A stretch of DNA of 64,000 nucleotides from Candidatus Competibacteraceae bacterium. Its GTDB lineage: Bacteria > Pseudomonadota > Gammaproteobacteria > Competibacterales > Competibacteraceae. The notes beneath the pieces were generated by a model. That model did not search any database, was not told the origin of the DNA, and saw only the letters and a program-made list of their open reading frames with translations. Within the stretch, counting starts at the first letter, position 1, and each line of letters begins with the position of its first letter. Both the position numbers and the translations under genes were made by a program. Shown here one piece after another: positions 3,209 to 45,190 of the stretch. The stretch is from assembly GCA_027492875.1 (NCBI GenBank), contig JAPUDV010000078.1:665-64664 (forward strand), read 5' to 3'.

Positions 3209-5631
<2,423 letters not shown>

Positions 5632-5635
<4 letters not shown>

Positions 5636-7584
5636 GGCTCCAGCACCAACCGGAATCCCAGGTCGAATTTCCCGTATTGAGGGGAAGCGGGAAACCGATA
5701 GGCGAACCGCACCAGGCCCGGATAATCCGACCACGACCCGCCCCGCAACATCCGGCGCCCTCCCGCCGCAGCGTTCTGATCGGCGCACCGTGCCTCGCCG
5801 CCCGCGTAGGCGCTATCGTAATCGGAACAGGTCCATTCGGCGGCGTTACCCAGCATGTCGTGCAGACCGAACGCGTTGGCTTCGTACTTGCCCACCGGAG
5901 CAGCCACGGCCTGGCCATCGTCGCAAGGATAATTAGCCCAGTTGAATTGCAGGGCTTTCTTGGCGGTTGCATCGTAGATATTGGCGTAACGGCACGCCCG
6001 ATTCGGGTCTTCCCCCCAGTCGCGGGAAAGCGTCTTGCCGGCGCGCGCCGCATACTCCCATTCCGCCTCGGTCGGCAGGCGGATTCGCAGGCCGGTTTTC
6101 TCCGATAGCCAGCCGGCGTAGGTGGCCGCATCCTGCCACTTGACCCGCACTACCGGCTGCTCGGGCGCGTTCAGATCATGGGTATCGTAGCTACCACTGT
6201 CGTGATTGGCGTCAAAACGCCGGTACTGATTGTTGGTGACCTCAAATTTACCCATCCAGAAACCCTTGAGACAAACCTGATGCGGCACTTCGTTGGCGCT
6301 GCGATCCTTTTCGGTTTCCGGGCTGCCCATGCCGAAACAACCAGGCGGAACCCAGACAAACGCCATGTCGATCTTGGGCTCGATGTAGATTTGGCCGGAT
6401 CGCGGATTGGCCGGTGGCCCCGATTCGACGACCGGCGGCGGCGGTGGCTTGGAAGTTGAATTGCCCGGTGCCGGTGGCCCCGTCAGCCAATACGCGACCC
6501 CGCCACCCACCGCCGCCACGATCGTCAGAATTCCGATTCCCCAACGCCATCTCGCCCGTGGAGGATGCGCCGGCGGCTGTTTCGGATCCGGCTCGACGAT
6601 CGCCGGGCGGGGCTTCCCGCCGCTGCGATGCAAATCGGAACGCAACGGCAACTCCAGTTTGACCGTGCGCTCGCCGCTGTCTTCCGGCTGAGCCTCCAGC
6701 GCCACCCGCATTTGCTCGATCGATTGGAATCGCCTTTCTGGCCGAACCGCCATGGCCCGGTCGATCAGCCGCAGTAAAGCGGGGTTGTACCGCCCGGCCG
6801 CAGCTTCCTCCGCGGGACGCAGCGGATCGTCGAGCACGCGCGCCGGCGCCTCGATCGGCGCGGCGCCAGTTACGCAGTGATATAAAACCGCCCCCAGGGC
6901 GTAAATATCGGTCCACGGGCCGTAACCCTTTCCGTCGACCAGATATTGCTCGATCGGCGAGTAACCCGGCGAGAACACGCTGGTTACGCTCTTGCTGCGT
7001 CGGCCCAGCGCCTGACGGGCCGCGCCGAAGTCGATCAGGATCGTGCGGTTGTCCGAGCGGAGGTAAAGATTGGCGGGCTTGAGGTCGCGATGCAGGTAGC
7101 CCTGGTCGTGCACCGCCTTCAGGGCCGGCAACACATCGTCGGTCAAGCGGCGGATCTGCTCTTCCGACAGGGTCTTTTCCCGCTGCAGGAGCTGGCTGAG
7201 CGCTTCGCCGTCCTCGTAGTCCATCACGATATAGGCGGTGCCATTCTCCTCGAAGAAGTCGCGCACCCGCACCACGCCGGGATGGTTGACCTTGGCCAGG
7301 ATCCGGGCCTCGTTGAGGAACCGCTCCAGGCCCCAGGCGTAGCAGGCTTCCTCGCCGACCTCGGAGGTCGGCAGCGTCCCTTGGGTGTTGGCCAGGACGT
7401 TGATATCGTTGCGGTCCCGGTAGGACCATTCCACCGGGAAATATTCCTTAACCGCCGCCCGGGTTTGCAGCGCCTCGTGCACGGCCATGTAGGTGATTCC
7501 AAATCCACCCGCGCCCAGCACCGCTTCGACGCGATACTGATGCAGGCGATAACCGACGGGCAGTGTGTTGGATTTCTTGGTCAT
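5632..7584 (-). CDS. Hanks-type Ser/Thr kinase with TM helix and C-terminal FGE-sulfatase (SUMF1-like) domain
   Basis: LGAGGFGITY, AVKE, HRDLKPAN and IDFGAA intact; TM WGIGILTIVAAVGGGVAYW; LPTEAEWEYAARAG, NAFGLHDMLGNAAEW, RGGSW...GFRLV. Confidence 0.92.
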
Positions 7585-7686
7585 GGCATCCTATCGTGGT
7601 ATCGGCGTGCGCCTTCAGGCGCTTTCGCGCAGGGCCGCGCGACCGCTCCGAACATTCCAAAAACCCCAAAAACGAACTGGACGGCC

Positions 7687-8610
7687 TTATTCGGACCCGC
7701 CGCTTTCCGCAGACGATTTTACCTGTCCCCGCCGCAAAGGCACACTGGATTCATGTTCCAGCAGACCAATAGCCTGCTCGTACTCCTGGGCTTGAACGTG
7801 CTGGCCGGTGTGCCGGACGATGGTTCGAGCCCGCCGGTAAAGCTCCAGCGCGGCGCGCGGATCGTCCTGTTCCTGGCGCACCCGCGCCAGCAGGGCCAGA
7901 TCGTGCGCCAGACCGGGCAGGTTTTCGGCTTCCCGATCCAGGTCGATGGCTTCCACGAGAGAGGCCTCGGCCTGGCGAATCTCACCAGCCCACAGCGCCA
8001 GGCTGGCCCGGTTGGCCAGCGTCGCCGCCAGCAACCGCTTTTCCCCGCTGAAACGCGCCAATGCCTCGGCCTCGTCCAAGAATCGCCGCGTTTCGCCCGA
8101 TTGCCCCAAGCCCTTGTAAGCCAACCCCAAACCGTTCAGCGCCGCCAGCATGGCGACATTGTCCCGCCGCTCGCGCCCCTCGTCCAGCGCGTGCTGAAAT
8201 TCCGTCCGCGCGGCCGCAAACCGGCCGCGCCGCAACTCGAGTTCCGCGAGACCCAGACGCGCCTGCGATTGGCTTGCCCGATCCGGCAGCGCCGCCGCTG
8301 CCCGCAGCGCCCCGCGCAAGCTCCGCTCCGCCAGCGGCCACTCGCCCAACGCCAGAGCGATCGCGCCCACATTCAGAGTCTGCGCCACGATCGCCGGACG
8401 GTCGTCGGCAATTTCGGCTCGGCGCAGGCTGTCCTGGAACCCCTGCAAGGCCTGCGGCAACTCGCCTCTCGCATAGTAGCGCAGCGCCCGTTCCTCACTG
8501 TGCTGGTACTGCGACTGCAACGGGGTCAGCGCCGGACCGCCGCAGGCCGCCAGTCCCGCCAACAGTCCGACCCCCAGCAACGCCTCGCCCCGGCCGCGTC
8601 TCAGCGCCAT
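7687..8610 (-). CDS. Tetratricopeptide-repeat lipoprotein
   Basis: Lipobox LAAC after a hydrophobic segment; repeated TPR-like helices (ALNGLGLAYKGLG, LANRASLAL, LAHDLALLARV). Confidence 0.8.
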   Translation of the reverse strand: MALRRGRGEALLGVGLLAGLAACGGPALTPLQSQYQHSEERALRYYARGELPQALQGFQDSLRRAEIADDRPAIVAQTLNVGAIALALGEWPLAERSLRGALRAAAALPDRASQSQARLGLAELELRRGRFAAARTEFQHALDEGRERRDNVAMLAALNGLGLAYKGLGQSGETRRFLDEAEALARFSGEKRLLAATLANRASLALWAGEIRQAEASLVEAIDLDREAENLPGLAHDLALLARVRQEQDDPRAALELYRRARTIVRHTGQHVQAQEYEQAIGLLEHESSVPLRRGQVKSSAESGGSE

Positions 8611-8648
8611 GCTCGCACTCCGCTGGTCATCGCACGTTCGCCCGGCCG

Positions 8649-9764
8649 CTAGGGGGGTGGCGCGGCGGGTGTGGACCCTTCGATATCCCGGGGCGCCTCC
8701 AGCAGGCGCCGACCCGGTTCCACCGGACTCAGGGTTCGAAACAGCGCGCTGCGCTTGATCCCGCCGACCATGTCATCCATATCCTCGGCCACCAGCCGGC
8801 TTTTGTCGATCAATCCGGGCACCTGCCCGCTGGCCTCGGCCAACTTCGCCGTCGTCCGTTCGGTCTGTTGCAGGATCCGCTCGATCTGCTGGCCGTAAGC
8901 CGGCAGCCGGTCGGCCAGCTTCTCCAGTCCCGCCAGCACCGCTCGCAGTTTGTGCGCGCTCGCCACCATATCGCGGGAGAGCGGACTGTCGCTGTCGGTC
9001 ATGCCGCCGAGCACCCCCTGACCTTCGCGGATCCGCGCGCCGACCGCAGCCAAATCCGCGGCCGAGCGGTTCGCTTCCCGACTGACGGCCGTCAGTTCCC
9101 GCAGCAGAGGGCCCAGTTGCCCGCTCAGTTCGGCCGCATCGCGCAGGACGCCATCGATTCGTTGCAGGTAGCCGGACAGTCGGGTCGAAAATTCCTGTGT
9201 GACCCGGGCGAAAGCATCCAGTGTTCCCAGCAACCCGCCCTCGGGTTTCCTGAGTGCATCGGTGATGGCTCTGACGTTGGTCAGCACGGCGGAAACCTGG
9301 ACCAATTGCTCCTGGGCCTGCCGCAGCAACATGTCCAGATCGGGCGCACGCAGAAAAGGGATTTTTTCGCCATCCCGCAATACCGGCCGCGCGGGATCCC
9401 CCATGTTGATTTCGATGTGGGCGTTACCCAGCAGGTCGGTTTTGACCTGGGCGGACGAATCCCCGCGGATGCGCGGCTGGTATTCCTGATCGAGAATCAG
9501 TTCGATGCGAATCTGGTTGTAATCGGTGATCGTCAGATCGCGCACCTCGCCGACCTTCAGCCCCGCCAGCGTGATCGGAGTGGTTCTCTGGATATTCTTG
9601 ACGTTGTCGAGAACCCCGTGCAAACGGTAGGTCTGACTGAAAAACCCGAACTGGCGGTTGGTCATCCACAGCATGGCGAACAGCACGCTCAGCGTGGCCA
9701 GAACCAGCAATCCCACCGAACGCTGGTAGAATCGGTAGCGGGCGCTGATCAAGGTCTCAAGCAT
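8649..9764 (-). CDS. MlaD/MCE-family protein with long helical C-terminal region
   Basis: N-terminal TM; PITLAGLKVGEVRDL and DSSAQVKTDLLGNAHIEI MCE motifs; start overlaps the ATPase stop. Confidence 0.88.
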   Translation of the reverse strand: MLETLISARYRFYQRSVGLLVLATLSVLFAMLWMTNRQFGFFSQTYRLHGVLDNVKNIQRTTPITLAGLKVGEVRDLTITDYNQIRIELILDQEYQPRIRGDSSAQVKTDLLGNAHIEINMGDPARPVLRDGEKIPFLRAPDLDMLLRQAQEQLVQVSAVLTNVRAITDALRKPEGGLLGTLDAFARVTQEFSTRLSGYLQRIDGVLRDAAELSGQLGPLLRELTAVSREANRSAADLAAVGARIREGQGVLGGMTDSDSPLSRDMVASAHKLRAVLAGLEKLADRLPAYGQQIERILQQTERTTAKLAEASGQVPGLIDKSRLVAEDMDDMVGGIKRSALFRTLSPVEPGRRLLEAPRDIEGSTPAAPPP

Positions 9765-10494
9765 GATCGAAACGCGCGAAGCGTCTGACCAGGGCATCCG
9801 GATGCCCGGCGAGATCCCCGGCCCTGTCCGCCGCCAGCAAAGTCCCCTGGTCCATGACCAGCAGGCGCGACTCCGGACCTACCGGCAGCGCCCGAGGGCC
9901 GGCATCGACCATGATCGTCATCTGCATCGGCGCGACCACCTCTTCGAAAAACGCCCACACACCGTAGCCCGCCACCAGGGTTTCCTGCGGCAGATAAGCG
10001 CTGACCAACAGCAGCCCAGGCTTGATGACCAGCGCCCGCAGCAAGCCGATCCAGCTACTTTCCAGCGGCGACAGCTCGCTGGCCTGTCGCGCCAGAATCG
10101 CCGGCGACAACCGGCAGGATTCCACGAAAGCCGTCACATAACCCTCGACCTCGCCGTCCGGCGCCAAACGGTGGTAACGCACCAGCAGCGCCAGATTTTC
10201 AAACACGCTCCAGGCCGGCACCAGACCGGCATGCTCCAGCACCACCCCAATCCGGCCGCGCAGGCGGGCTCGGGCGCGCGGCCACATCCGCTCCACGGCC
10301 TGTCCGAACAGTTCGATGCGACCGGTTCGGGGCGCGGCCAGGCCGGCGATGGTACGGATCAACTCGCGCCGGCCCGAACCGACCGCGCCCACCAGCATCC
10401 AGGTCTCGCCCGCCATGGCCCGAAAATCGAAAGGACGCGGCGGCGGCGACAGGTCCAGCCCCAAACCGCGCAACCACACCCGCCCCTCAGCCAT
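9757..10494 (-). CDS. MlaF-like ABC ATP-binding subunit with degenerate catalytic motifs
   Basis: ABC-fold context (G.IELFG, RIGVVLE...L.P..SVFENL) between mlaE- and mlaD-like genes; Walker A GAVGSGRRE, signature LSPLE, Walker B LLLVSA. Confidence 0.8.
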   Translation of the reverse strand: MAEGRVWLRGLGLDLSPPPRPFDFRAMAGETWMLVGAVGSGRRELIRTIAGLAAPRTGRIELFGQAVERMWPRARARLRGRIGVVLEHAGLVPAWSVFENLALLVRYHRLAPDGEVEGYVTAFVESCRLSPAILARQASELSPLESSWIGLLRALVIKPGLLLVSAYLPQETLVAGYGVWAFFEEVVAPMQMTIMVDAGPRALPVGPESRLLVMDQGTLLAADRAGDLAGHPDALVRRFARFDHA

Positions 10495-11290
10495 AACGCA
10501 GCAGCGAAACCAGCAGGGTGATGATCAGGCAACCGATGAAGGACTGCGCGAACGCGCTGGGCAGCGCCCGGGGGATATCCACATAAGCCCGGACCTGAAA
10601 AGCGCGTTGGGTCTGCACCAGGACAATGTGGATGCCTTGCGCGACCACCATGCCGCCGGTCAGCACCAGCGATCCGTAGCTCAGCCCCGAAACGCAAACC
10701 CGGAAAAAAACCGACGGCGGGATGTTCTGATAGACGCTCAGCATGACCCCCGCTCCGACGGTCACTCCGACACTCAGCCAGAAGGTCAACACCAGCAGCG
10801 ACAGCACCACGCCGATCAGGCGGGGCAGCACGAAAAAACCATACGGGTTGATGCCCATCGCGGCCAAATGCTCGATGGCCTGATTCGCCTTGAGTTCGCC
10901 CAACTCGGCAGTGATGGCCGCGCCCGACAGCCCCGCCACGAACAGGCTCGCCAGAATGGGATCAAGCTGATGATACATCATGATATGCATGATGCGTCCC
11001 AGCAACCGGGGGTCGCGAATGCCGAACACGATCAGCGGCAAGGCGACCAGAGCGCCAATGATCAGGCCAACGACAGTGAAGATATACGCTCTTTGCACCG
11101 CCGTGAAATAGATCTGTTGCAAGGTATGCCCGAGCAGAAACCGCCCCTGTCCCCGCGTGATCAGACCGGCGCTGACCAGCACGATCACCAGGAAATCCAA
11201 CTCCTCCCGCAATCGCGCCAGGGGGCCTGTCACCAATGCGCCCGCACCGTCGACAATCCGCCAGAAATCAGCCCACACGGCGGCTTTCAT
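10487..11290 (-). CDS. MlaE-family ABC permease
   Basis: SGAAITAELGEL...AIEHLAAMGINPYGFFVLPRLIG; multiple TM helices. Confidence 0.88.
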   Translation of the reverse strand: MKAAVWADFWRIVDGAGALVTGPLARLREELDFLVIVLVSAGLITRGQGRFLLGHTLQQIYFTAVQRAYIFTVVGLIIGALVALPLIVFGIRDPRLLGRIMHIMMYHQLDPILASLFVAGLSGAAITAELGELKANQAIEHLAAMGINPYGFFVLPRLIGVVLSLLVLTFWLSVGVTVGAGVMLSVYQNIPPSVFFRVCVSGLSYGSLVLTGGMVVAQGIHIVLVQTQRAFQVRAYVDIPRALPSAFAQSFIGCLIITLLVSLLRYG

Positions 11291-11317: not shown

Positions 11318-14017
11318 TCAAGGCAGTTCCCGCACCAAACGAAACCCCAGGAAGTAATCCCGGAAATCGGGGTCGTTGCGATGCCGGTCGGCCGAACGCA
11401 CGTTGCGCGGCTCGTCGTTCCAGGACCCGCCGCGCACCACGAACTGGCGTTCCGCCGCGGGTTCCTCGCAACTTTGGAGAGGCGCCTGGGGATCCTCGCT
11501 GTAGAGCGAACAGGTCCATTCCAGCACGTTGCCGGCCATGTCGTGCAAGCCGAAGTCGTTGCTCCGATAGCTGCCGACCGGCGCCGTGTAGACTTCGCCA
11601 TCGCGACAATTCATCACCGTCCAGCCGACAAAAACCCGCCTGCCGTCCAAATCGGCGGCGTTGGCGTAGGCGCAGCCACGGTCGGGGTCGTCGCCCCAGT
11701 AACGGCTGGTTCTCGTCCCGGCGCGCGCCGCGTATTCCCACTCCGCCTCGGTGGGCAAGCGGTAGCGCTGGCCGGTCTGCTGGGACAGCCACCCAGCATA
11801 GGCCATGGCGTCCCGCCAGCTTACATTGATCACCGGACGCCGGCTGCGTCCCCAACTCTGATCGGGGGGCAACAGGCGCCCCGTCATCGTCGCGAAGCGG
11901 TCGTATTCATAAAACATCACCTCATATTTGCCGATGGCGAAGGGTTTCGCAATCCGCACCGGGTGCTGCGGCTCGTCGTTGTAACGACCCTTCTCACCGG
12001 CAGGGGATCCCATCAGGAATCCACCGGCCGGGATCACCACCATTTCTGGACCTTGCGAGCCATCGTTCAGCCGGTCCCGCATCACCGGGTTGGCCGGAGC
12101 CAGTCGGGCCAGCGCGGTCTCGGCCTCGGCCCGGTGGCGACAGGTCGCCGCGCAGCGATCCAGATAGTCCCAATACGCCTCGCGGGTGTTGGCGCGCTGG
12201 GCGGTGGCGAAGACGTTGGCATCCAGACGCCGGGCCTTGTCCGCACCTTCGGCTTCCGCCAACATTCGGGCCAGATCCGCCCGTTCGGGCGGGGAGGGCC
12301 GCATCGATTCGATCTTTCCGAACCATGTGCGGGCCTCGTCCAACTCCGACCGATCCAGGCTGGCCCGTACCCGCGCCGCCCAGACGAGCGCCACCCGCCG
12401 CCGTCCGGCCGCGATGAACGGATCGTCCGGCGTTAGCTTCGCCAGCGTATCCAGTTCGGCCAGGGCTTGCTCGCCCTGACCACCGCCGCTTTCCTGCTCC
12501 AGACCTTGCGCCAGCGTTTCGAACCTCGCCTTAAGTTCGTCGGCTTTCTGCCGGGTTTCCAGATCCAGGATGGCCTTTCGCGCTTCCTTTTCGTAGCCGC
12601 AGCGCGGGCAACGTTGCAGGTAAAGCCGGTAGGCCAGCAGGGTGTTCACCCGTCTGGCGGCTTCAAAAGCACGCAGGTCGGTGGCGCTTTCCGCCTCGCG
12701 CAAAGAAGCGGCCAGGTTAGTGGCCGGCGGCGATGTTACCGCTTCCCGAACGGTTTCGCCGGTGGCGACCCGCTCCGGCTGACCGGATTCGGGCGCTCTG
12801 TCCGGCCGCATGGTCAGCCAGAAAATCGCCAGGGCGGCGATCAAGCCTAAACCCGGCACCAGCATCCAGCGGGATCTCAGAAACGAACCCAGCCCCTGGC
12901 GCGCCACCACCGTCGGCTGCTGCGCCGCGTCCAGGGCGCCGATGAACTTGCCGGCTTCGGTCGGACACAGCTCGCTGGGATAGGCCAGACCCCGCCGCAG
13001 GACGCGCCAGGCGTCGTCCCCCAGCTCCGGCGGGCGCGGCACCATGTTGGGCGAATCCCCCTGGGCCTCATAGGCGCTCCGCCCGGTCAGCGCCTGATAA
13101 ACCAATAGCGCCAAGGCGTACACATCGCGGCGGAAGGCGATGCTGGCGGCGACCGATTCCACCGCGCCCTCGGCGACCATCTCCCCGGCCAACCTACCCG
13201 TGTTGAACAGGACGCCGTGCGGCTCCCGCGGTTCGGTCGCCAACCCAAACCCCAACAGTTTCATCTCCCCCTGGTTGGAGAAAAATATCATGTCGGCGTC
13301 GAGGTGCTGGTGGGGCAAGCGATGCTCCTGCCGGGCGTAATCCAGAGCGGCCGCCACCGGACCGAACCATTTCAGCACCGTTTCCAAAGGCAGACCGTTT
13401 TGCCCCTGCTCCCGCAGCAGTTGACCGAGCGTGTGCCCCTGTCGGTGATCGACGTACTCCATCTCGGCGAACGCCCAGCCATCGGCGCCGTGCCGCCAGC
13501 CCTCGGTGCGTGCGATGTTCGGATGCGCGAGTTTCGCAGCCTGTTCCACCCGGGTCCTAACTCTGGTCAGATAGGCGCGCAAGCCGATCAGATCTGCCCG
13601 CAGCGCCCGTTCGTCGCGTTCGGATTCACGCGGGCCGGACAGGGAGCCGGCCGGCAAAAAGATCTTGATGGCGCGAAAATCGCCGTCCGCGCCGTCGCCG
13701 CTCTTCGGTTCCGGCGTCGCGATGCGCGCCAGCCATATCCGCCCCCGACCGCTGAGATCATGCAACAACCGGACCCGTCGCTCGGCGGGTCCGATCATCA
13801 TCCCGGTTTCCAGGGTTTCCAAATCCCGCGGCTGCCGGTCGACCCCCGACTCGACGCCGACCGTCAGGCCACCTACCCCAGACAGAACCCCATCGGCGTG
13901 ACCCTCCGATGTCGCCTCCCGCAACAAGGCCTCTTGGCGGCGCGCCAGCTCGGCCTCGTCCAACCGGCCGGCGGCATATGCTTCCGCAAGTTCTTCAAGA
14001 CGCGTTTCAATGTTCAT
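11318..14017 (-). CDS. SHOCT + kinase-like (pseudokinase) + TM + helical repeats + FGE-sulfatase domain protein
   Basis: N-terminal LEELAEAYAAGRLDEAELARRQEALL (SHOCT-like); AIK, HPNI, EMEY; HQHLD and GFG in place of HRD and DFG; TM LVPGLGLIAALAIFWL; FGE motifs GPEMVVIPAGGFLMGS...RGGSW...GFRLV. Confidence 0.85.
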   Translation of the reverse strand: MNIETRLEELAEAYAAGRLDEAELARRQEALLREATSEGHADGVLSGVGGLTVGVESGVDRQPRDLETLETGMMIGPAERRVRLLHDLSGRGRIWLARIATPEPKSGDGADGDFRAIKIFLPAGSLSGPRESERDERALRADLIGLRAYLTRVRTRVEQAAKLAHPNIARTEGWRHGADGWAFAEMEYVDHRQGHTLGQLLREQGQNGLPLETVLKWFGPVAAALDYARQEHRLPHQHLDADMIFFSNQGEMKLLGFGLATEPREPHGVLFNTGRLAGEMVAEGAVESVAASIAFRRDVYALALLVYQALTGRSAYEAQGDSPNMVPRPPELGDDAWRVLRRGLAYPSELCPTEAGKFIGALDAAQQPTVVARQGLGSFLRSRWMLVPGLGLIAALAIFWLTMRPDRAPESGQPERVATGETVREAVTSPPATNLAASLREAESATDLRAFEAARRVNTLLAYRLYLQRCPRCGYEKEARKAILDLETRQKADELKARFETLAQGLEQESGGGQGEQALAELDTLAKLTPDDPFIAAGRRRVALVWAARVRASLDRSELDEARTWFGKIESMRPSPPERADLARMLAEAEGADKARRLDANVFATAQRANTREAYWDYLDRCAATCRHRAEAETALARLAPANPVMRDRLNDGSQGPEMVVIPAGGFLMGSPAGEKGRYNDEPQHPVRIAKPFAIGKYEVMFYEYDRFATMTGRLLPPDQSWGRSRRPVINVSWRDAMAYAGWLSQQTGQRYRLPTEAEWEYAARAGTRTSRYWGDDPDRGCAYANAADLDGRRVFVGWTVMNCRDGEVYTAPVGSYRSNDFGLHDMAGNVLEWTCSLYSEDPQAPLQSCEEPAAERQFVVRGGSWNDEPRNVRSADRHRNDPDFRDYFLGFRLVRELP

Positions 14018-14188
14018 AACATACTGATTTGCCGTGCAATTCTGAAGATTTGTTTGAATTGGAAACCATAAACTGCATTATGGCCTAGTTTAGCAGAACG
14101 ATGAAATCGCCTGATGCTCTCTCAAAAGAGATTCCATGGAGTTCCATTGGGCACCGGTTGTAACATACCGAGGGTGGTGTCCCTTTCC

Positions 14189-15274
14189 ATGACCGACTCT
14201 AAACTACAGATGCGCACGCACACCGACCCTTCCATCATGAATCCGGCCGACGCCCACGATCAGCTGCCGTATACCATGGCTCTTCCACGTCATCTCGATT
14301 CCGGAGATCCCTCGCCGGAACTCGCCTGCAAAGACGAGGTTTCGCTGGAAATCGCCGTGCGCTCGCTGCGTTCGCCCACCGGCCAGGGCCGCCGCGAAAA
14401 TCAGGATAATTTTCTGACCGTGGACGGTCTGGGCCAAGCCCGCCTGCTGTGGCGCGAACAGGAAACCCGGTTGCGGCTGGCCGACTGGCCGGCCGGACAC
14501 CGGCGACTGGCCGTGCTCGACGGCATGGGTGGTCATAGCCACGGTCGGGAAGCGGCCGAAAAAGCTATCGAAGGGTTGCTCGGCCTGCCGGCGACCGCCG
14601 GTCTCGCCCGACTCTCCGAAACCCTGAATGCCCTGCACCAGCAGCTTTATCAGGAATTTCACAAGGCAGGGCTGGAAACCGGTTGTACCCTGGTACTGCT
14701 GGAAATCCCCCCTCAAGGTCCCGCCATGCTGTTTCACGTCGGCGATTCGCGGTTGTACGCCATCGACGAACATCGGGTCCAATGTTTGACCGTGGATCAC
14801 GTTCCGGCCACTCACTTGGCGATGCTCGGTCTGCTGAACGGCGCCCAATGGCTCCAGCAGGTCCACATTCAAACCAGTTCCCAAATCAGCCAGGCGTTCA
14901 TTCTCGGCAGCACCCTGGGCGTGCCGCATCTTTACGCGGAGAGTATCGACCCTGAGTTGTACGAACTGCACGAAGGCAATTTGCCTCTCTTTCTAAGAGG
15001 GCTGGGCGACCGCCGCGCCCTGACGCTGGAACCGGGTTGGGTTTACCTGCTCGCCAGCGACGGTCTCTGGCACCTGACCAGCCCGCAGGCCTTCATCCAG
15101 CGTTGGCCGGCGCTGCTGGCGCAACCGCAACGCCCCTTGGAAGAACTGATCGACGAGTTACTGAACATTTTGGCCGAAACCATCCACCAGCAACGCAGCC
15201 TGCCCGACGATAACTGCACGGTTATCCTGGTCCGCAAACCCCTTCAGACCGCGTTTCGCCAAGCTAGCCCCTAA
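14189..15274 (+). CDS. PP2C-family Ser/Thr phosphatase
   Basis: ENQD, AVLDGMGGH, HVGDSRLY, LASDGLW and DDNCT metal-binding motifs all intact; start codon uncertain (14114/14189/14237). Confidence 0.9.
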   Translation: MTDSKLQMRTHTDPSIMNPADAHDQLPYTMALPRHLDSGDPSPELACKDEVSLEIAVRSLRSPTGQGRRENQDNFLTVDGLGQARLLWREQETRLRLADWPAGHRRLAVLDGMGGHSHGREAAEKAIEGLLGLPATAGLARLSETLNALHQQLYQEFHKAGLETGCTLVLLEIPPQGPAMLFHVGDSRLYAIDEHRVQCLTVDHVPATHLAMLGLLNGAQWLQQVHIQTSSQISQAFILGSTLGVPHLYAESIDPELYELHEGNLPLFLRGLGDRRALTLEPGWVYLLASDGLWHLTSPQAFIQRWPALLAQPQRPLEELIDELLNILAETIHQQRSLPDDNCTVILVRKPLQTAFRQASP

Positions 15275-22183: not shown

Positions 22184-22879
22184 ATGAACGAACTCGATCT
22201 GTCCCGACAAACCCCGTTCGGCGCGGATTTCAGCGTTGCCGAATTCGCCGACAACCCGGAGCCGCGCTGCCCCTGCGTGTTGCTGCTGGACAATTCCTGG
22301 TCCATGAGCGGCCACCCGATCACCGAACTCAACGAAGGACTGGCCACTTTCAAGGAAGAACTGCTGGCCGACAGCCTGGCGGCCAAGCGGGTCGAAATCG
22401 CCATCGTCAGCTTCGGCCCGGTCCAGGTGGTCAACGAATTCCAGACCGCCGAGCACTTCACGCCCCCGCAACTGGCGGCGCGCAAGGACACGCCCATGGG
22501 CCTGGCGATCATTCAGGGGCTGGAACTGCTGGACCAGCGCAAAGCGCTGTACCGCGAACACGGTATCCCCTTCTTCCGTCCCTGGGTATTCCTGATCACC
22601 GACGGCAGCCCCACCGATGACTGGAAAGCCGCCGCCAACGAAGTGCGCAAGGGCGAGGAAAATCGCGCCTTCGCCTTCTTTGCGGTCGGGGTCGAGGGCG
22701 CCAACCTGGATATCCTGCAACAAATTTCCCCGCGCCAGCCGCTGCGATTGAAAGGGTTACGGTTCCGCGAACTGTTCCAATGGCTGTCCAACTCGATGCG
22801 GTCGGTGTCGCGCTCGGTGCCGGGCGCCGAAGTACCGTTGAGCAACCCCACCGCGCCTGACGGCTGGGCCTCGGTGTGA
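22184..22879 (+). CDS. yegL: TerY-like vWA domain protein
   Basis: [58 protein letters not shown]. Confidence 0.9.
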
Positions 22880-23841
22880 ACGAGCCGGACGGCTGGCGCC
22901 ACGTCCGCGCCAGCGTGGCGGGCGTGGCGCACCTGGCCGTTGGCGCCGGCTGTCAGGACGCCTGCGCGGCCCAATTACTGTCCGGGCCGGAATCGAGCCC
23001 CGTGCTGGTGCTGGCCGCCGCCGATGGCGCCGGCAGCGCCGCCCTCTCGGGCGCCGGCGCGGAGCTGGCCTGCCAGACCCTGCTGGCCGAATGCGCGGCC
23101 TGGCTGGCGGACGCCCCCGCCGAAGACTGGACCCCGGCTGCGGCGGAGAAGATGCTCCAGCAGGTTCGAACCGCGCTGGGGCGCCTCGCGGCGGACACGG
23201 GACAACCGATACGGGAATTCGCCTGCACCTTGCTGGGCGCGGTGGTGGCCGCCGACCGTGCGCTGTTCCTGCAAATCGGCGACGGCGCCATCGTGATCGG
23301 CGCTCCGAACCAAGGTTACCGGCCGGTGTTCTGGCCACAGACCGGCGAATACGCCAACGAAACCTACTTTGTCACCGACATCGCCGCCGCCACCCATCTT
23401 GAATGCGCGATCCTGAGCGAACCCGTCGCCGAAATCGCGCTGCTGACCGATGGCCTGCAACGGCTGGCGCTGCACTATCAAACCCGCCAGGCCCACGAAC
23501 CGTTCTTCCGTCCGCTGTTCCAGCGCTTGCGCGCACATCCGGAACCTGGCTGTCCGGCGATTCTGGCGACCGCGCTGGAACGCCTGCTCGCCGGCCCGGC
23601 GATCAACCAGCGCACCCACGACGACAAAACCCTGATCCTGGCCACCCGGCTGGCGGCGGAATCCGCCGAAGACACCGGCGGCGCGGGCGTTCCTCCCCTC
23701 CCCCCCTCATCCTGCCCGAGCGGCGACGAGGACGCGACCACCGACGATCCGGCGGGGATGTCTTCCCTCCCGGCGGACGAGGGTGAGGAGTCGGCCCCCG
23801 AATCCGAGCTTCGGGAAGAATCCGGTGACGCGGCTGCATAG
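22876..23841 (+). CDS. yegK: PP2C-like phosphatase of the TerY-P triad
   Basis: [44 protein letters not shown]; GTGA overlap with the vWA gene. Confidence 0.88.
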
Positions 23842-25825
23842 CGGCGCCGGTCACCCCGTCGAGCTGGGCAAGACGCTGGGGCGCGGCGGCGAAGGCGTGG
23901 TCCATGACATCGCCGGCCGGCCCGGCTTTGTCGCCAAGATCTACCACCAGGCGGTCGGCGCCGACAAAGCGCTCAAGCTGGAAGGGATGGCCCGGCAAGC
24001 CCACCCCAGTCTGCTGGAAATCGCCGCTTGGCCGGTGGACGTGCTGCGCGCCCATCCGACCGGTCCAGTGCACGGTTTCGTCATGCCCAAGGTCAGCGGC
24101 TACCAGGAGATCCACAGCCTGTACGGACCGGCGCACCGCAAGCGGGCCTTCCCGCAGGCCGACTGGTCCTTTCTGATCCATGCCGCCCGCAATCTGGCCA
24201 GTGCGTTCGAGACCATCCACGCTCGCGGCCACGTCATCGGCGACGTCAATCCTGGCAACGTGGTGGTTTCCGCTCAGGCGCTGGTCAAACTGATCGATTG
24301 CGACTCCTTCCAGATCGACACCGGCAATCGACTGTTTCCCTGCGATGTCGGCGTGCCGCAGTTCACCGCGCCGGAGTTGCAAGGCCGCCCGTTTCACGGA
24401 CTGCGGCGCGCTCCGGATCACGATGCCTTCGGCCTGGCCCTGCTGTGCTTCCACCTGCTGTTCATGGGACGCCACCCCTTCGCCGGCCGCTATCGGGGCA
24501 AGGGCGACATGCCGATCGAGCGCGCCATCAAGGAATGCCGGTTCGCCTTCGGCCAGCACGCCGCCGCCCGCTCGATGGAGCCGCCGCCGCACACCTTGCC
24601 GCTCGCCGCCCTGCCGCGTCCGGTCGCGCATCTGTTCGAGCGTGCCTTCGCCCCCCCCAGTGCGGCCCAATCGCGGCCCTCCGCCCGCGAATGGCTGTTG
24701 GCGCTGGAACAACTCAACGGCGAGCTGCGCGCCTGCCGGCGCAGCGCCGCGCACAAATACCCGCAACGGTTGCCAGCCTGTCCGTGGTGCGCGCTGGAGC
24801 AGGCCAGCGGAACCCTGTTTTTCATCCTGCCGGCCCAGACTCTGGCGGCCGGCCCCACCGCTGGCCCCACCGATTTCGAACTGGAACCGGTCTGGAATCG
24901 CATCCTGGCGCTGGAACCGCCGCCGGACGAGAGTCCGCCGGCGCCGGTGGCGGCGCAACTGGCGCCGATCACCCCCACCCCATTGCCGGAACCGCTGCGT
25001 CGGGTCCGCCGCCACAACGCGATCAAGGCGGTGGTCGTCGCCGGTATCGTCCTGGCCGCGATAGTGATCCGCCCGCGACTGAGCTGGCTATGGTTGCCGC
25101 TGGCCACCGTCGGCTGGTCGCTATCGCGGAACAGCGCGGCGCGGCGGGAACGCCAGCGCCGCCGGTTGGCGCTGCTGGCGGCCCGCCGGGAGCTGACGGA
25201 ACTGCGGACAGCCTGGCAACGCCACGCCACCGCACAGCCGTTCGCCGGCAAGCTGCAAGCACTGCGCGAACTGCGCGAGCGCCACCGTACCCTGGGAGCC
25301 GAATTCCGGCGCAGCTTGCGGCGGCTGGAAACCGGCCAACGCCAGCTTCAATTGCAGGCGTTTTTGGAAGGTCACTTCGTCGATGCCGCCCGGATCGCCG
25401 GCCTGCGCGCCACCGACCGGTTGGCGCTGGAATCCTACGGCATCGAAACCGCCGCCGACGTGACGCCCGCCGCAATCCAGGCGGTGCCCGGCTTCGGCCA
25501 GCGCTTCGGCCAGCAGCGATACGCGGCGCTGCTGGCCTGGCGTCAGGCCCTGGAGCGCCAGTTCCGTTACGATCCCGGCAAGGGCGCCAATCCGGCCGCC
25601 GTCGCCAACCTGCGCCAGCACTACGCCCAACAGCGGCAACAGATCGAACGGGAACTGCTGGCGGGTCCCGAGGAACTGGCTAAAATCAAGACGGACATCC
25701 TCAAGCAACGCGCCCAGCTCAATATCGCCCTGATCCGCCAGGCGATGCGAGAGGCGCAGGCGCAAGCCGACCTGCGGGTTTTCCATCCTGATATCGGGTT
25801 TTTACGGCGGCGCAACGGCGGCTAG
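23825..25825 (+). CDS. yegI: Ser/Thr kinase with TM segments and helix-hairpin-helix C-terminus (TerY-P triad)
   Basis: LGRGGEGVV, VAKIY, IGDVNPGN, LIDCDSFQI, GVPQFTAPELQ; TM pair; GIETAADV...IQAVPGFG HhH. Confidence 0.88.
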   Translation: MTRLHSGAGHPVELGKTLGRGGEGVVHDIAGRPGFVAKIYHQAVGADKALKLEGMARQAHPSLLEIAAWPVDVLRAHPTGPVHGFVMPKVSGYQEIHSLYGPAHRKRAFPQADWSFLIHAARNLASAFETIHARGHVIGDVNPGNVVVSAQALVKLIDCDSFQIDTGNRLFPCDVGVPQFTAPELQGRPFHGLRRAPDHDAFGLALLCFHLLFMGRHPFAGRYRGKGDMPIERAIKECRFAFGQHAAARSMEPPPHTLPLAALPRPVAHLFERAFAPPSAAQSRPSAREWLLALEQLNGELRACRRSAAHKYPQRLPACPWCALEQASGTLFFILPAQTLAAGPTAGPTDFELEPVWNRILALEPPPDESPPAPVAAQLAPITPTPLPEPLRRVRRHNAIKAVVVAGIVLAAIVIRPRLSWLWLPLATVGWSLSRNSAARRERQRRRLALLAARRELTELRTAWQRHATAQPFAGKLQALRELRERHRTLGAEFRRSLRRLETGQRQLQLQAFLEGHFVDAARIAGLRATDRLALESYGIETAADVTPAAIQAVPGFGQRFGQQRYAALLAWRQALERQFRYDPGKGANPAAVANLRQHYAQQRQQIERELLAGPEELAKIKTDILKQRAQLNIALIRQAMREAQAQADLRVFHPDIGFLRRRNGG

Positions 25826-33723: not shown

Positions 33724-34404
33724 TCAGCGCTGCCGCACCACCTGATACGGACGGGCCACGTAGGTGACCGGCGCGCTCCAGATATGCACCAGCCGGCTGA
33801 AGGGGAATACCAGGAACACGGTCAAGCCCAGGAAAATATGCAGCTTGAACAGGAAGCCCATGGGGGTGATGGCGGCCACCGCTTCCGCCGGATCGAACGT
33901 CACGACATTCCGCGCCCACTGCATGAGCAGCAGCATATTGCCGCCATCCAGATGCATCAGCGACAGCGGGATGGTCAGCAGACCGAGGGTTAGCTGCATA
34001 TATAAGAGCAGCAGGATAAAAATATCCATTCGGGTACTGGTCGCCCGCACCCGGGGATCGTTCAGCCGCCGCTGCACCAGCATCGTCAGCCCGGCGAAGC
34101 ACATCAACCCGGCGACGCTACCGGCGACGATGGCCAGGATTTGTTTGGCGCCCGCAGAGACGCCCAAGGCGTGGAACACTTCCGGCGGGGTGAGCAAACC
34201 GATGAAATGGCCGGCGAACAGAAGCAGGATGCCGACATGAAACAGATTGCTGGCCCAACGCATGTTCTTGTTGCTGATCATCTGGCTGGAATGCGCCTTC
34301 CAAGTGAACTGGTCGCGGTCGAAGCGCGCCAAGCTGCCGAGCAGGAAGACTGCGCCGGCCAGATAAGGATAAACGCCAAATAACAGGGTATTCAGGTAAC
34401 TCAT
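33724..34404 (-). CDS. narI: Respiratory nitrate reductase gamma subunit (cytochrome b)
   Basis: FGVYPY, RFDRDQFTWKAHSSQ, FHVGILLLFAGH, FPFSRLVHIWS. Confidence 0.97.
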   Translation of the reverse strand: MSYLNTLLFGVYPYLAGAVFLLGSLARFDRDQFTWKAHSSQMISNKNMRWASNLFHVGILLLFAGHFIGLLTPPEVFHALGVSAGAKQILAIVAGSVAGLMCFAGLTMLVQRRLNDPRVRATSTRMDIFILLLLYMQLTLGLLTIPLSLMHLDGGNMLLLMQWARNVVTFDPAEAVAAITPMGFLFKLHIFLGLTVFLVFPFSRLVHIWSAPVTYVARPYQVVRQR

Positions 34405-34436
34405 GATCTTTTACCTCAAGTGTTTGCCGAGGGCGA

Positions 34437-34475
34437 CCCTCACCCCCAGCCCCTCTCCCGCAAGCGGGAGAGGGG
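34437..34475 (+). repeat. Dispersed hairpin/G4 repeat, copy 1 (narJ-narI intergenic)
   Basis: CCCTCACCCCCAGCCCCTCTCCCGCAAGCGGGAGAGGGG. Confidence 0.85.
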
Positions 34476-34479
34476 CGTG

Positions 34480-35196
34480 TTACAGGGGACGAGCCGTTTG
34501 TGGAGTTGAACCAGGTGGGGGCATCCAGCGTACCGGTTGGGTCGTACCCTGGCCCGTTTGGCGAGCGCCACAACCCTCCCGATTCGCCAGGAATGTCACC
34601 ACCTCCTCTTCCCAAATCTTGTCCATGTTGACGATCGCTTGATCGGGACCCTCGGTCGCGGCTTGCCGGCGAATCTCCTCGATGTCCGCCGGGTCGCCGA
34701 CCAGCGCGGCGAGGGCATCGAACACGACGTGATAATCGCTGCCGCGCTCCGTCAGCCGGGCGCCAAGCAAGGCCATGACGTGCATGGCATCGGCCAACAT
34801 GTCCAGCGCCTCTCCCGCCGGACGCTGCGCCAGATATTCCAGAAACAGTGGAATGTAGTCGGGCAGTTCGCGGGCGTTCAGTTCGAAACCGTGCCGGTGG
34901 TAAACCTTCAGCAGGTCGACCATGGCCTGACCGCGATCCCGCGATTCGCCGTGGATATGCTCGAACAGATGCAGCGATAACGCCCGGCCCCGGTCGAAGA
35001 GCCGAACATACCGTTCCTGCCACTCGATCGGATCGGTCCGCCGCATCTGGTTCATCATCGCCAACAACGCCTGCTGCTCGCGTTCCGGCAACAAATTTTC
35101 CTGGACGAGAACTTCCGCCATCTCCCCCAACGCCGCCTGCATCTCCGGTTGTGGGTAGCACAGCAGGGCGGACAGGACTTTCAGGGTTTTCATCAT
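34480..35196 (-). CDS. narJ: Nitrate reductase molybdenum cofactor assembly chaperone
   Basis: SALLCYP, YVRLFDRGRALSLHLFEHIHGESRDRGQAMVDL, ELPDYIPLFLEYL. Confidence 0.97.
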   Translation of the reverse strand: MMKTLKVLSALLCYPQPEMQAALGEMAEVLVQENLLPEREQQALLAMMNQMRRTDPIEWQERYVRLFDRGRALSLHLFEHIHGESRDRGQAMVDLLKVYHRHGFELNARELPDYIPLFLEYLAQRPAGEALDMLADAMHVMALLGARLTERGSDYHVVFDALAALVGDPADIEEIRRQAATEGPDQAIVNMDKIWEEEVVTFLANREGCGARQTGQGTTQPVRWMPPPGSTPQTARPL

Positions 35197-35229
35197 TCCA
35201 CCTCGTGTATGTGGCGCCCGATACCAGCG

Positions 35230-35264
35230 CCCTCACCCCAACCCCTCTCCCGGAGGGAGAGGGG
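35230..35264 (+). repeat. Dispersed hairpin/G4 repeat, copy 2 (narH-narJ intergenic)
   Basis: CCCTCACCCCAACCCCTCTCCCGGAGGGAGAGGGG. Confidence 0.85.
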
Positions 35265-35278
35265 CGCTTGCCCTCGAT

Positions 35279-36832
35279 TCAGGCTTTGGTCGGCGGCTCC
35301 ACGCGAATCGGAACCGCCCGGCGCGTCGTCACTTTCTTGCCACCAAACAGATTGGTTTTATCCGTACCCGGCGAGCAGCCGTTGCCGAAGCTGAAGCCGC
35401 AACCGCCACGCTCACCGAAGGCGTCATAGGTGGCGCTGGCATATTCGCGGTGGCTGGTCGGAATAACGAAGCGATCTTCGTAATTGGCAATCGCCAGATA
35501 GCGGTACATCGATTCGACCTGATCGATGCGCAGACCGACCGCTTTCAGCACGTCGTCGCGGATTTCGCCGTCCACCGTCTTGCCGCGCATGTAGGCGCGC
35601 ATGGCCAGCATCCGCTCCAGCGCCAGCTTGACCGGCTTTTCGTCGCCGGCGGTCAGCAGGTTGGCCAGATACTTCAGCGGAATCCGCAAGGAACCGACAT
35701 CGGGGATGATGCCGTTCATGCCGATCTGACCGGACTCGGCGCGGGACTGGATCGGCGACAGCGCCGGCACATACCAGACCATCGGCAGGGTGCGGTACTC
35801 GGGATGCAGCGGGAAGGCGATCTTCCACTCGATCGCCATCTTGTAGATGGGTGACTCCTGAGCCGCTTCCAGCCACGGCTCGGGAATGCCGGCCTTGCGC
35901 GCCTCGGTCTGCACCGTCGGGCTGAACGGATCGAGGAACATGTCGAGCTGGGCCTGATACAAACTCTGCTCGTCGGCGACGCTGGCGGCCTGCTCGATTT
36001 TATCGGCGTCGTACAGCAATACGCCCAGATAGCGGATGCGGCCCACGCAGGTTTCCGAGCAAACGGTCGGCTGGCCGACCTCGATGCGCGGGTAGCAGAG
36101 GATGCACTTTTCGGATTTGCCGGTATTCCAGTTGTAGTAAATCTTCTTGTACGGGCAGCCGGAAACGCACATCCGCCAACCCCGGCACTTGTCCTGGTCG
36201 ATCAGAACGATGCCGTCCTCCTCGCGCTTGTAGATCGCGCCCGACGGGCAGGACGCGACGCAGGCCGGGTTCAGGCAATGCTCGCACAGGCGCGGCAGGT
36301 ACATCATGAAGGTGTTTTCGAACTCGCCGTACATCTCCTTCTGCACGTTCTCGAAGTTGGTGTCCTTGGAACGCTTGGCGAATTCGGTGCCGAGGATTTC
36401 CTCCCAGTTCGGCCCCCACTGGATTTTTTGCATCCGCTCGCCGCTGATCGCCGAGCGCGGCCGGGCGGTGGGCATGGCTTTCGACTCCGGCGCATTCTGC
36501 AAATGTGCGTAGTCGTAATCCCACGGTTCGTAGTAGTCGTCGATGGCCGGCAGGTCGGGGTTGGCGAAGATATTCGCCAGAATCCGCCACTTGCCGCCCT
36601 GCTTCGGCTCGATTTTGCCGTCCCGGCGGCGTTTCCAGCCGCCGTTCCACTTCTGTTGGTTCTCCCATTCCTTGGGATAACCGATGCCGGGCTTGGTCTC
36701 GACGTTGTTGAACCAGGCGTATTCCATACCGTCGCGGCTGGTCCAGACGTTCTTGCAAGTCACCGAACAGGTGTGGCAGCCAATGCACTTGTCCAGATTC
36801 AGGACCATGGCGATTTGTGCGCGTACTTTCAT
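35279..36832 (-). CDS. narH: Respiratory nitrate reductase beta subunit
   Basis: MKVRAQIAMVLNLDKCIGCHTCSVTCK, CEHCLNPACVASCP, CRGWRMCVSGCPY, CILCYPR. Confidence 0.98.
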   Translation of the reverse strand: MKVRAQIAMVLNLDKCIGCHTCSVTCKNVWTSRDGMEYAWFNNVETKPGIGYPKEWENQQKWNGGWKRRRDGKIEPKQGGKWRILANIFANPDLPAIDDYYEPWDYDYAHLQNAPESKAMPTARPRSAISGERMQKIQWGPNWEEILGTEFAKRSKDTNFENVQKEMYGEFENTFMMYLPRLCEHCLNPACVASCPSGAIYKREEDGIVLIDQDKCRGWRMCVSGCPYKKIYYNWNTGKSEKCILCYPRIEVGQPTVCSETCVGRIRYLGVLLYDADKIEQAASVADEQSLYQAQLDMFLDPFSPTVQTEARKAGIPEPWLEAAQESPIYKMAIEWKIAFPLHPEYRTLPMVWYVPALSPIQSRAESGQIGMNGIIPDVGSLRIPLKYLANLLTAGDEKPVKLALERMLAMRAYMRGKTVDGEIRDDVLKAVGLRIDQVESMYRYLAIANYEDRFVIPTSHREYASATYDAFGERGGCGFSFGNGCSPGTDKTNLFGGKKVTTRRAVPIRVEPPTKA

Positions 36833-36833
36833 G

Positions 36834-40592: not shown

Positions 40593-40644
40593 GTTAAATG
40601 ACCTCGCTTTTTTAGGGAGAGGAGGTCTGCCTTTGCAGGATCGG

Positions 40645-40682
40645 CCCTCACCCCCAACCCTCGCCCGCCAGCGGGCAAGGGG
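40645..40682 (+). repeat. Dispersed hairpin/G4 repeat, copy 3 (narK2-narG intergenic)
   Basis: CCCTCACCCCCAACCCTCGCCCGCCAGCGGGCAAGGGG; compensatory T>G/A>C change in the stem. Confidence 0.8.
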
Positions 40683-40709
40683 AGTCAACGGTTATTGGAA
40701 CCAGGCCGC

Positions 40710-42326: not shown

Positions 42327-42388
42327 GATGATGAGCCTCTATAATGATAACCATTTATGAAATATGATTTTTATCGGCGTCTTTGTTT

Positions 42389-45079: not shown

Positions 45080-45109
45080 TGCGAACCTCGCTTTTATGCT
45101 GCAAGTGCA

Positions 45110-45115
45110 ATACTA
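45110..45115 (-). promoter_or_regulatory. Putative -10 box (TAGTAT) of the narK promoter
   Basis: Spaced so that the FNR-like box is centred at -41.5 from an inferred +1 at 45103. Confidence 0.55.
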
Positions 45116-45137
45116 CGATGCCCGCGACGCCCAATTC

Positions 45138-45151
45138 TTGAGTTAAGTCAT
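45138..45151. promoter_or_regulatory. FNR/ANR/DNR-type box
   Basis: TTGAG-TTAA-GTCAT versus consensus TTGAT-N4-ATCAA, upstream of the narK operon. Confidence 0.65.
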
Positions 45152-45190
45152 TGGTTTTTATCTTCGAAATGACCCTTTCAACCAATCTCA

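Follow-up and report, generated by a model that had tools for sequence, protein, structure and literature searches.

In ABC dimers, each ATP is bound between the Walker A, Walker B and H-loop of one nucleotide-binding domain (NBD) and the signature motif of the other. An NBD of this kind is found in the closest described relatives of the locus reported here, namely MlaF in the MlaFEDB complex and MceG (Mkl), the ATPase shared by Mce1-4. The stretch of DNA analyzed in this study (64,000 nucleotides, ~63% GC; hereafter the window) comes from Candidatus Competibacteraceae bacterium (assembly GCA_027492875.1, contig JAPUDV010000078.1, positions 665 to 64,664 of the forward strand). It contains an operon that encodes an MlaE-family permease, an MlaF-type NBD, an MlaD protein and a TPR lipoprotein. 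The NBD, called pNBD here, is by descent and fold an MlaF-type NBD of an MCE system. It has lost all motifs for handling nucleotide, and this loss is conserved under purifying selection.

The pNBD locus was compared to MlaFEDB and to the MceG systems. It resembles MlaFEDB in its closest solved structures and in the operon logic of MlaE with an MCE-domain MlaD, and pNBD shares the C-terminal HPDxxVRxF-like tail of MlaF. However, the catalytic motifs are absent, and the gene order is E–F–D instead of the F–E–D of Mla. The MlaD of the window carries an additional helical extension of ~240 residues, and the TPR lipoprotein is a conserved fourth gene. Furthermore, no MlaB (STAS), MlaC or MlaA domain was found among the cluster genes of the window or in the distant loci described below, and these may be encoded elsewhere. 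MceG is likewise an MlaF-type NBD of MCE systems, with long needle-forming MCE proteins. In contrast to pNBD, which is encoded inside its own operon and is apparently dead, MceG is active, and its gene lies apart from the mce operons. Mce complexes depend on MceG for their stability, and both transport and stabilisation require its Walker B (PMC9947336).

Loss of the catalytic Glu, the H-loop and the signature with the fold kept is also seen in heterodimeric exporters (TM287/288, MsRv1273c/72c, ABCB11, CFTR and TAP). However, these exporters always keep one consensus site that drives transport, whereas pNBD of Competibacter does not have even the binding residues. Both half-sites of pNBD are degenerate, so the locus does not correspond to a heterodimeric ABC system with one consensus site. 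Since a single NBD gene supplies both subunits, both ATP sites at this locus would be dead. If this is true, a permease would have as its only partner a homodimer of entirely dead NBDs. This would be an unusual case among pseudoenzymes, because known degenerate sites always coexist with one active site. In the full-text literature, we found no account of a degenerate MlaF-like subunit or of an MlaE–NBD–MlaD–TPR module, only single degenerate sites in heterodimeric exporters.

MCE envelope systems that work without an ATP-hydrolysing subunit are represented by LetAB and PqiABC. How these ATPase-free systems are energised is an open question, and the direction of lipid transport by Mla is also argued (PMC13017536). 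PqiC is described as an outer-membrane lipoprotein partner (PMC10897342). The partners LetA and PqiA are unrelated to MlaE, and these systems have no NBD-like subunit, whereas the pNBD system keeps the ABC architecture in an apparently disabled form. LetAB and PqiABC indicate that MCE function without an own ATP cycle is feasible. A natural Mla-type system in which the ABC architecture was kept while hydrolysis and then binding appear to have been removed would be a ready-made test of what else an NBD contributes apart from ATP turnover, for instance to assembly, to conformational locking or to regulation.

Fold, family and motif loss of pNBD

The gene under study is as follows.

9757..10494, minus strand: pNBD, a 245-aa MlaF-derived ABC nucleotide-binding domain without any catalytic motif (pseudo-ATPase), characterized by Pfam, AlphaFold2, Foldseek and the ratio of nonsynonymous to synonymous substitutions (dN/dS, or omega)

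The open reading frame (ORF) starts with ATG, and its GC content at third codon positions (0.80) is usual for coding sequence here. An ORF of 252 aa on the plus strand (9763-10521) is the mirror of pNBD, a high-GC artefact and not a gene. A second long mirror ORF on the plus strand (6946-8652, 568 aa) is likewise an ordinary high-GC artefact opposite real genes.

pNBD matched Pfam ABC_tran (PF00005) with 50.3 bits against a cutoff of 25 bits, and its best NCBIfam model was FtsE, with 62.5 bits against a cutoff of 265. AlphaFold2 with a 62-sequence alignment predicted a complete NBD fold (pLDDT 91.8, pTM 0.89). The PF00005 score and the predicted fold place pNBD in the ABC NBD family. In a Foldseek search of the PDB, the top match was P. 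aeruginosa MlaF (7ch8_J, TM 0.82), with further matches to A. baumannii and E. coli MlaF (TM 0.81-0.82) and to mycobacterial MceG (8fed_H, TM 0.79) among more than 1000 NBD matches in total. The closest canonical sequences were annotated as 'phospholipid/cholesterol/gamma-HCH transport ATP-binding protein' and carry an LSGGM signature. Thus, pNBD is assigned to the MlaF/MceG type by its overlapping MlaE and MlaD genes and by its closest canonical sequences and structures, which are those of MlaF.

Motifs were placed by a HMMER alignment to solved FtsE and by MAFFT alignments with 41 canonical MlaF-like sequences, and all coordinates were re-translated. The following elements were located.

10363..10389, minus strand: Walker A remnant GAVGSGRRE; the canonical form is GxxGxGK[ST], with Lys replaced by R42 and Ser/Thr by R43
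10234-10236, minus strand: E87 at the position of the Q-loop Gln, from the alignments
10171..10248, minus strand: residues 83-108 around the Q-loop (GVVLEHAGLVPAWSVFENLALLVRYH), where conservation within pNBD is highest
10060..10074, minus strand: signature remnant LSPLE in place of LSGGQ/M, from the alignments
9997..10014, minus strand: Walker B remnant LLLVSA; the canonical form is hhhhDE, with Asp replaced by Ser165 and the catalytic Glu by Ala166, followed by the invariant L168-P169-x-E171
9895..9900, minus strand: invariant Gly199-Pro200 at the H-loop position, the column in which the 41 canonical sequences have His

In the MAFFT alignment, Leu occupies the A-loop column in which canonical sequences have Phe/Tyr, and no D-loop can be recognised. 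Therefore, all seven nucleotide-handling elements of pNBD are replaced, and none of the Walker A, Q-loop, signature, Walker B, H-loop and A-loop has the form expected of a catalytically competent ABC ATPase. A reading made earlier from the sequence only had listed the losses in Walker A, Q-loop, signature, Walker B and H-loop, and the three alignments (one HMMER and two MAFFT) placed every one of them in the same way. A frame error or a misalignment was ruled out, as these alignments concur with the confident NBD fold.

Conservation and selection in Competibacteraceae

A homologue search across 5.8 billion proteins returned ~70 clusters with 63-100% identity to pNBD, and their named members are Candidatus Competibacter, Contendobacter and Competibacteraceae. 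Below these clusters, no hits fell between E = 2e-42 and E = 4e-7, the value at which generic ABC ATPases start. In a 34-sequence alignment of the homologues (A1; mean column identity 78%), residues S40, G41, R42, E87, L141, S142, P143, L144, E145, S165, L168, P169, E171, G199 and P200 were invariant or nearly invariant. Around the Q-loop, 15 of the 26 positions of residues 83-108 were invariant, and this block is also conserved in the wider family described below.

With one genome per GTDB species, 27 Competibacteraceae loci with pNBD were obtained. S40, G41, R42, L141, L144, E145, L168, P169, E171, G199 and P200 were invariant in all 27 copies. Each of these residues is encoded by two to four synonymous codons, e.g., CGG, CGA, CGC and AGG for R42 and GGC, GGT and GGG for G199. 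The Q-loop position was E87 in 25 of the 27 copies and Ala in the remaining two, and no copy (0/27) had reverted to a canonical residue.

The non-canonical motif states recur in 68 homologous sequences, which excludes a chance effect. At the second Gly of the P-loop, 45 of the 68 clade members have Asp, and position 43, which corresponds to the Mg ligand, is R, G, S, C or H. The Walker B of the clade has Ser or Gly at the Asp position and Ala, Thr or Gly at the catalytic Glu position. The Asp in the P-loop and the substitutions at the Mg-ligand position count against retained phosphate and Mg binding.

Pairwise dN/dS values of pNBD by the Nei-Gojobori method were about 0.23-0.25. The same method gave 0.18-0.21 for MlaE, 0.23 for MlaD and 0.23-0.25 for the upstream pseudokinase gene. 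The dN/dS of pNBD is indistinguishable from that of the flanking MlaE and MlaD. Furthermore, metatranscriptome contigs from wastewater and bioreactors, which are ~86-90% identical to the window and come from related strains, cover the pNBD gene and span the pseudokinase-MlaE, MlaE-pNBD and pNBD-MlaD junctions.

These data bear on lineage-specific decay, in which pNBD would be a recently inactivated MlaF drifting toward loss. The low family-model scores would fit such a history. However, the frame is intact in 27 genomes at 63-91% identity, the substituted residues are invariant, and omega (~0.24) is as low as in the neighbours. In addition, the NBD fold is predicted with confidence, and there are transcripts of homologous operons. 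We therefore regard decay as extremely improbable, and together with a sequence artefact it was rejected on conservation, omega, fold and transcript data. Motif loss, omega of ~0.24 and invariant substituted residues with synonymous variation together identify pNBD as a pseudoenzyme. The sequence-only reading had taken it for a retained pseudo-ATPase rather than a decaying gene and had proposed a motif alignment of homologues and dN/dS as a check. This check was performed, and the reading was borne out: the homologues in the ~70 clusters and 27 loci share the non-canonical residues of pNBD, and these are maintained while their codons vary.

The whole cluster was also found in a metagenome-assembled genome labelled 'Phycisphaerales bacterium isolate GAO1' (JACSSB010000240.1; locus L006), with 66-91% protein identity and 81% for pNBD. 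This is probably a mislabelled or misbinned Competibacter contig.

The four-gene module, its wider family and the search for another ATPase

The other three genes of the module are listed below.

10487..11290, minus strand: MlaE-family permease, 267 aa (Pfam MlaE 101.5 bits; alignment to P. aeruginosa MlaE 7ch8_G)
8649..9797, minus strand: MlaD/MCE-domain protein (Pfam MlaD 51.4 bits and a weak Mce4_CUP1 match; likely start 9764)
7687..8610, minus strand: TPR lipoprotein, the fourth conserved module gene (Pfam TPR_12; conserved lipobox L-A-A-C-G-G)

The start ATG of pNBD overlaps the MlaE stop by 8 nt (ATGGCTGA). Its stop overlaps an in-frame MlaD ATG by 8 nt (ATGCTTGA) and the longest MlaD ORF by 41 nt. 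The intact frame coupled to both neighbours, as described from the sequence before, was thus confirmed. The order MlaE–pNBD–MlaD–TPR is maintained in the 27 Competibacteraceae loci and in 8 of the 9 distant loci described below. MlaD has an N-terminal transmembrane helix, a single MCE domain and the C-terminal extension, and its matches in the PDB were MlaD and Mce1 subunits. A faint 'Helical_needle' match was seen in its relatives. The TPR lipoprotein has 30-33% identity to the fourth gene of the Magnetococcus and metagenome loci.

A hidden Markov model search with A1 against 1.84 billion cluster representatives returned 11 proteins at E <= 1e-30. Directly below the Competibacter representatives, proteins of 230-260 aa with 25-36% identity were found. 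The 165 single-domain hits were classified by motif state.

Fully degenerate class, n = 67: all motifs lost; essentially the Competibacter clade
Half-degenerate class, n = 34 (clusters at 50% identity): the Walker A Lys-Ser/Thr and the Walker B Asp are retained, whereas the Q-loop Gln (usually Glu), the LSGG signature (now L[ST]xEQR), the catalytic Glu and the H-loop His are missing
Canonical MlaF-like class, n = 41: LSGGM signature
Intermediate or other class, n = 23: e.g., P0099, with Walker A Lys replaced by Ile, signature LSPLE and Walker B Asp kept

In the wider family, the Walker A Lys is present in at least 90% of members and the Walker B Asp is invariant. The named half-degenerate members belong to Magnetococcales (Magnetococcus spp. 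and Candidatus Magnetaquicoccus), and the rest belong to unnamed metagenome lineages. The wider half-degenerate family reaches other phyla and is apparently undescribed. A third homologue search reached only its Magnetococcales branch, and a metagenome scan (A5) for more half-degenerate members returned solely canonical FetA/YbbL-like ATPases.

Judging by their residues, the half-degenerate proteins could bind Mg-ATP, but they would do so without the catalytic base, the His and the clamp. Those with Walker A resemble the 'ATP-binding, non-hydrolysing' sites of exporters (PMC7544095, PMC12038006). In a neighbour-joining tree, the Competibacter clade is nested inside the half-degenerate clade. 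As the wider family is without the hydrolysis residues but keeps Lys and Asp, and the Competibacter clade lies within it, hydrolysis would have become dispensable before binding was lost. The loss looks stepwise, with hydrolysis first and nucleotide binding later. Three natural states could then be compared: canonical, binding-only (Magnetococcales) and nucleotide-free (Competibacteraceae).

The conservation of Lys and Asp in the wider family implies selection for nucleotide binding there. As an alternative, pNBD might have kept the binding of a nucleotide, or of some other ligand with a phosphate group, without hydrolysing it, and serve as a ligand-gated regulatory switch on MlaE, like the degenerate site of heterodimeric exporters. 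The invariant P-loop backbone and the invariant S40-G41-R42 triad speak for such a switch. However, the Competibacter clade is without the Mg-ligand Ser/Thr, its Walker B Asp is Ser, and Leu takes the place of its A-loop aromatic residue. In most members, Asp at the second P-loop Gly puts an acidic side chain in the phosphate pocket, and the signature meant to clamp the gamma-phosphate is LSPLE. A ligand switch in pNBD is therefore quite unlikely. Without the Lys, the Mg ligands and the adenine-stacking residue, and usually with Asp in the P-loop, nucleotide binding by the Competibacter proteins is improbable. Hydrolysis appears to be lost in pNBD, and nucleotide binding is most likely lost as well in the Competibacter clade.

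Nine distant loci with the module were analyzed. MlaD lies directly downstream of the NBD in every locus whose sequence extends that far. Six loci have MlaE upstream, one lineage is without it, and a TPR protein is fourth in five. Neither a second NBD nor a kinase was found in the distant loci. Each of the four window proteins (MlaE, NBD, MlaD and TPR protein) has a homologue in the Magnetococcus module, with 27-35% identity. This homology of all four proteins indicates that the four genes are an old, co-inherited unit and not chance neighbours.

In one metagenome lineage (loci L033 and L034), a half-degenerate NBD–MlaD–TPR set follows a YjeF/carbohydrate-kinase gene without MlaE upstream, and the N-terminus of this NBD was truncated by the gene caller. 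Two 555-aa proteins (P0084 and P0089) contain two canonical MlaF-like NBDs in tandem, a fused double-MlaF architecture. They score against the pseudo-NBD profile as high as true distant relatives.

We then considered whether another ATPase could serve the module. A canonical NBD profile was compared to all six-frame open frames of the window, and the pNBD ORF was the sole match, which agrees with its earlier description as the only ABC ATPase. A regular-expression scan of the window for ORFs with Walker A and LSGGQ returned no other ORF. In all 27 loci, the ~10 kb around the cluster contained no MlaF-type NBD. The NBD profile had only two other matches near the cluster in these loci, namely an amino-acid ATPase of the GlnQ/HisP type (L003) and an open frame of 970 aa (L020). 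Each operon has one NBD gene, and a canonical NBD was adjacent to the cluster in 0 of 36 loci.

The complex could nevertheless be powered by a canonical MlaF/MceG-type ATPase encoded elsewhere, with pNBD beside it as an accessory subunit or a competitor. MceG, which serves several Mce operons in mycobacteria, is a precedent for an orphan ATPase shared in this way (PMC9947336). However, from the geometry of ABC dimers, a heterodimer of pNBD and MlaF would not rebuild an active site, because the composite ATP site is missing from pNBD in both of its halves. Displacement by a canonical homodimer would make pNBD superfluous, which conflicts with omega of ~0.24, the 8-nt overlaps and the strict co-occurrence with MlaE and MlaD. 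Considering also the surveyed 10-kb surroundings, powering by an external ATPase is very unlikely.

Proposed role of pNBD and its signalling neighbourhood

We consider it fairly probable that pNBD is a non-catalytic docking and organising subunit of an envelope MCE complex that is independent of an ATP cycle of its own. The data show motif loss, conservation, purifying selection, fold, operon conservation and the stepwise loss across the wider family. Docking on MlaE, loss of nucleotide binding, independence from ATP and a locked dimer are inferred.

pNBD descends from an MlaF-type ABC subunit and keeps the surface expected to dock on MlaE. In the proposed mechanism, it would persist as the structural subunit on the cytoplasmic side of an envelope complex with four parts, namely MlaE and pNBD as dimers, a ring of MlaD with its long helical extension, and the TPR lipoprotein. 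The Q-loop block (residues 83-108) corresponds to the NBD surface that, in ABC transporters, provides the groove for the coupling helix of the permease, and the MlaE of the window keeps an EAA-like coupling-helix segment (AELGELKANQAIEHLAAMGINP) in the alignment to 7ch8_G. pNBD would hold the MlaE dimer together with the MlaD ring, perhaps in a conformation that does not change. The complex might then pass lipid or other hydrophobic cargo, or act as a fixed bridge, without its own ATP cycle. The sequence-only reading had suggested a complex that does not transport or the use of an ATPase encoded elsewhere, and transport independent of ATP, as in Let and Pqi, would be a third option. The former ATP-sandwich surfaces are rebuilt with new and strongly conserved residues, SGR (P-loop), LSPLE (signature), LPxE (after Walker B) and GP (H-loop), which may hold the pNBD dimer in one state without nucleotide. 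Arg42/43 of the P-loop may pair with Glu145 of the signature across the dimer, in place of ATP.

Several points weigh against a docking role without ATP. Arg can replace the P-loop Lys for binding, although not for hydrolysis, in other P-loop proteins, so pNBD could have some phosphate ligand. The neighbour-joining tree is distance-based and without support values, and the metatranscriptome contigs may include DNA carry-over. The ATPase search covered ~10 kb around the cluster, and a canonical MlaF or an orphan MceG-like ATPase may be encoded elsewhere in the genomes. Walker B mutants of M. tuberculosis MceG fail to stabilise Mce complexes (PMC9947336), which indicates that the scaffold role is coupled to the active site in the canonical system.

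The module of the window lies among genes for a pseudokinase, a kinase and a phosphatase, listed below.

11318..14017, minus strand: receptor pseudokinase with a C-terminal FGE-sulfatase-like domain, 899 aa (weak Pkinase and strong FGE-sulfatase match), the first gene of the row
5632..7584, minus strand: intact PpkA-like Ser/Thr kinase with an FGE-sulfatase-like domain, 650 aa (closest solved relative PpkA, 227 bits)
3209..5788, minus strand: PEGA/CarboxypepD_reg-repeat protein of 859 aa that includes a CsgG-like segment and closes the conserved row
14114..15274, plus strand: PP2C/SpoIIE-type phosphatase, divergent from the row

A co-directional row of seven genes is syntenic in all 27 loci, in the order pseudokinase-FGE, MlaE, pNBD, MlaD, TPR lipoprotein, kinase-FGE and PEGA protein. 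The divergent PP2C was seen in the window only. In the 899-aa pseudokinase, HRD is changed to HQH and DFG to GFG, and the Lys and Asn of the catalytic loop are replaced. These changes are conserved in 26 of 26 homologues. As this gene adjoins the module with pNBD, the operon has two pseudoenzymes side by side.

This arrangement was compared to TagQRST–PpkA–PppA of the Pseudomonas H1 type VI secretion system (H1-T6SS). Both have a clustered lipoprotein, an ABC-type membrane complex, a PpkA-like kinase and a PP2C phosphatase. TagR presumably has an FGE-like fold, whereas the FGE domains at the pNBD locus are fused to kinases. TagST is another type of ABC and an active ATPase, and the pNBD locus has neither an active TagT-type ATPase nor a linked T6SS/Fha target. 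No T6SS or FHA gene was found in the window, and a T6SS link for the PpkA-like kinase was dismissed on this ground. The TagQRST-like association is limited to Competibacteraceae.

From this neighbourhood, the MlaE/pNBD/MlaD/TPR complex could be mainly an envelope sensor or scaffold for Hanks-type signalling and not a transporter, like TagQRST upstream of PpkA and PppA. pNBD would then be a cytoplasmic adaptor or phosphorylation target that links the membrane complex to the pseudokinase, kinase and phosphatase. The synteny with the pseudokinase, kinase and PEGA protein, the divergent PP2C of the window and the closeness of the intact kinase to PpkA agree with this, and the pseudokinase-MlaE junction is among those crossed by a metatranscriptome contig. 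TagQRST-PpkA-PppA also unites an outer-membrane lipoprotein, a periplasmic protein, an ABC transporter, a kinase and a phosphatase (PMC6657622). However, the distant loci, that of Magnetococcus included, have the four-gene module but no kinases, which points to the kinase wiring as a lineage-specific addition and not the cause of NBD death. Together with the absence of T6SS and FHA genes and the active ATPase TagT of the Tag system, this makes a primarily signalling role unlikely.

Returning to pNBD as a docking subunit, we tentatively raise the possibility that the locus represents an unrecognised subtype of MCE machine, composed of MlaE, a dead NBD, a needle-type MlaD and a TPR lipoprotein and present in Competibacteraceae, Magnetococcales and other lineages. 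Its motor would have been disabled in two steps and its dimer locked, and it would form an ATP-independent conduit that is wired to the pseudokinase, kinase and phosphatase in Competibacteraceae, where it would serve envelope signalling. Competibacteraceae are glycogen-accumulating organisms of wastewater plants, and a family-wide module linked to Ser/Thr signalling may matter for their physiology.

Other genes of the window were also recorded. On the plus strand, 22184-25825 encodes a VWA-domain protein, a PP2C_2 phosphatase and a 680-aa protein without a Pfam match as overlapping or adjacent genes, a signalling-like cluster. The region 33724-47914 contains the narGHJI operon for respiratory nitrate reductase (33724-40688, minus strand), two NarK-like MFS transporters, one of which is fused (896 aa), and a NarX/NarL-type two-component pair (45391-47914). 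These nar genes are consistent with a denitrifying Competibacter.

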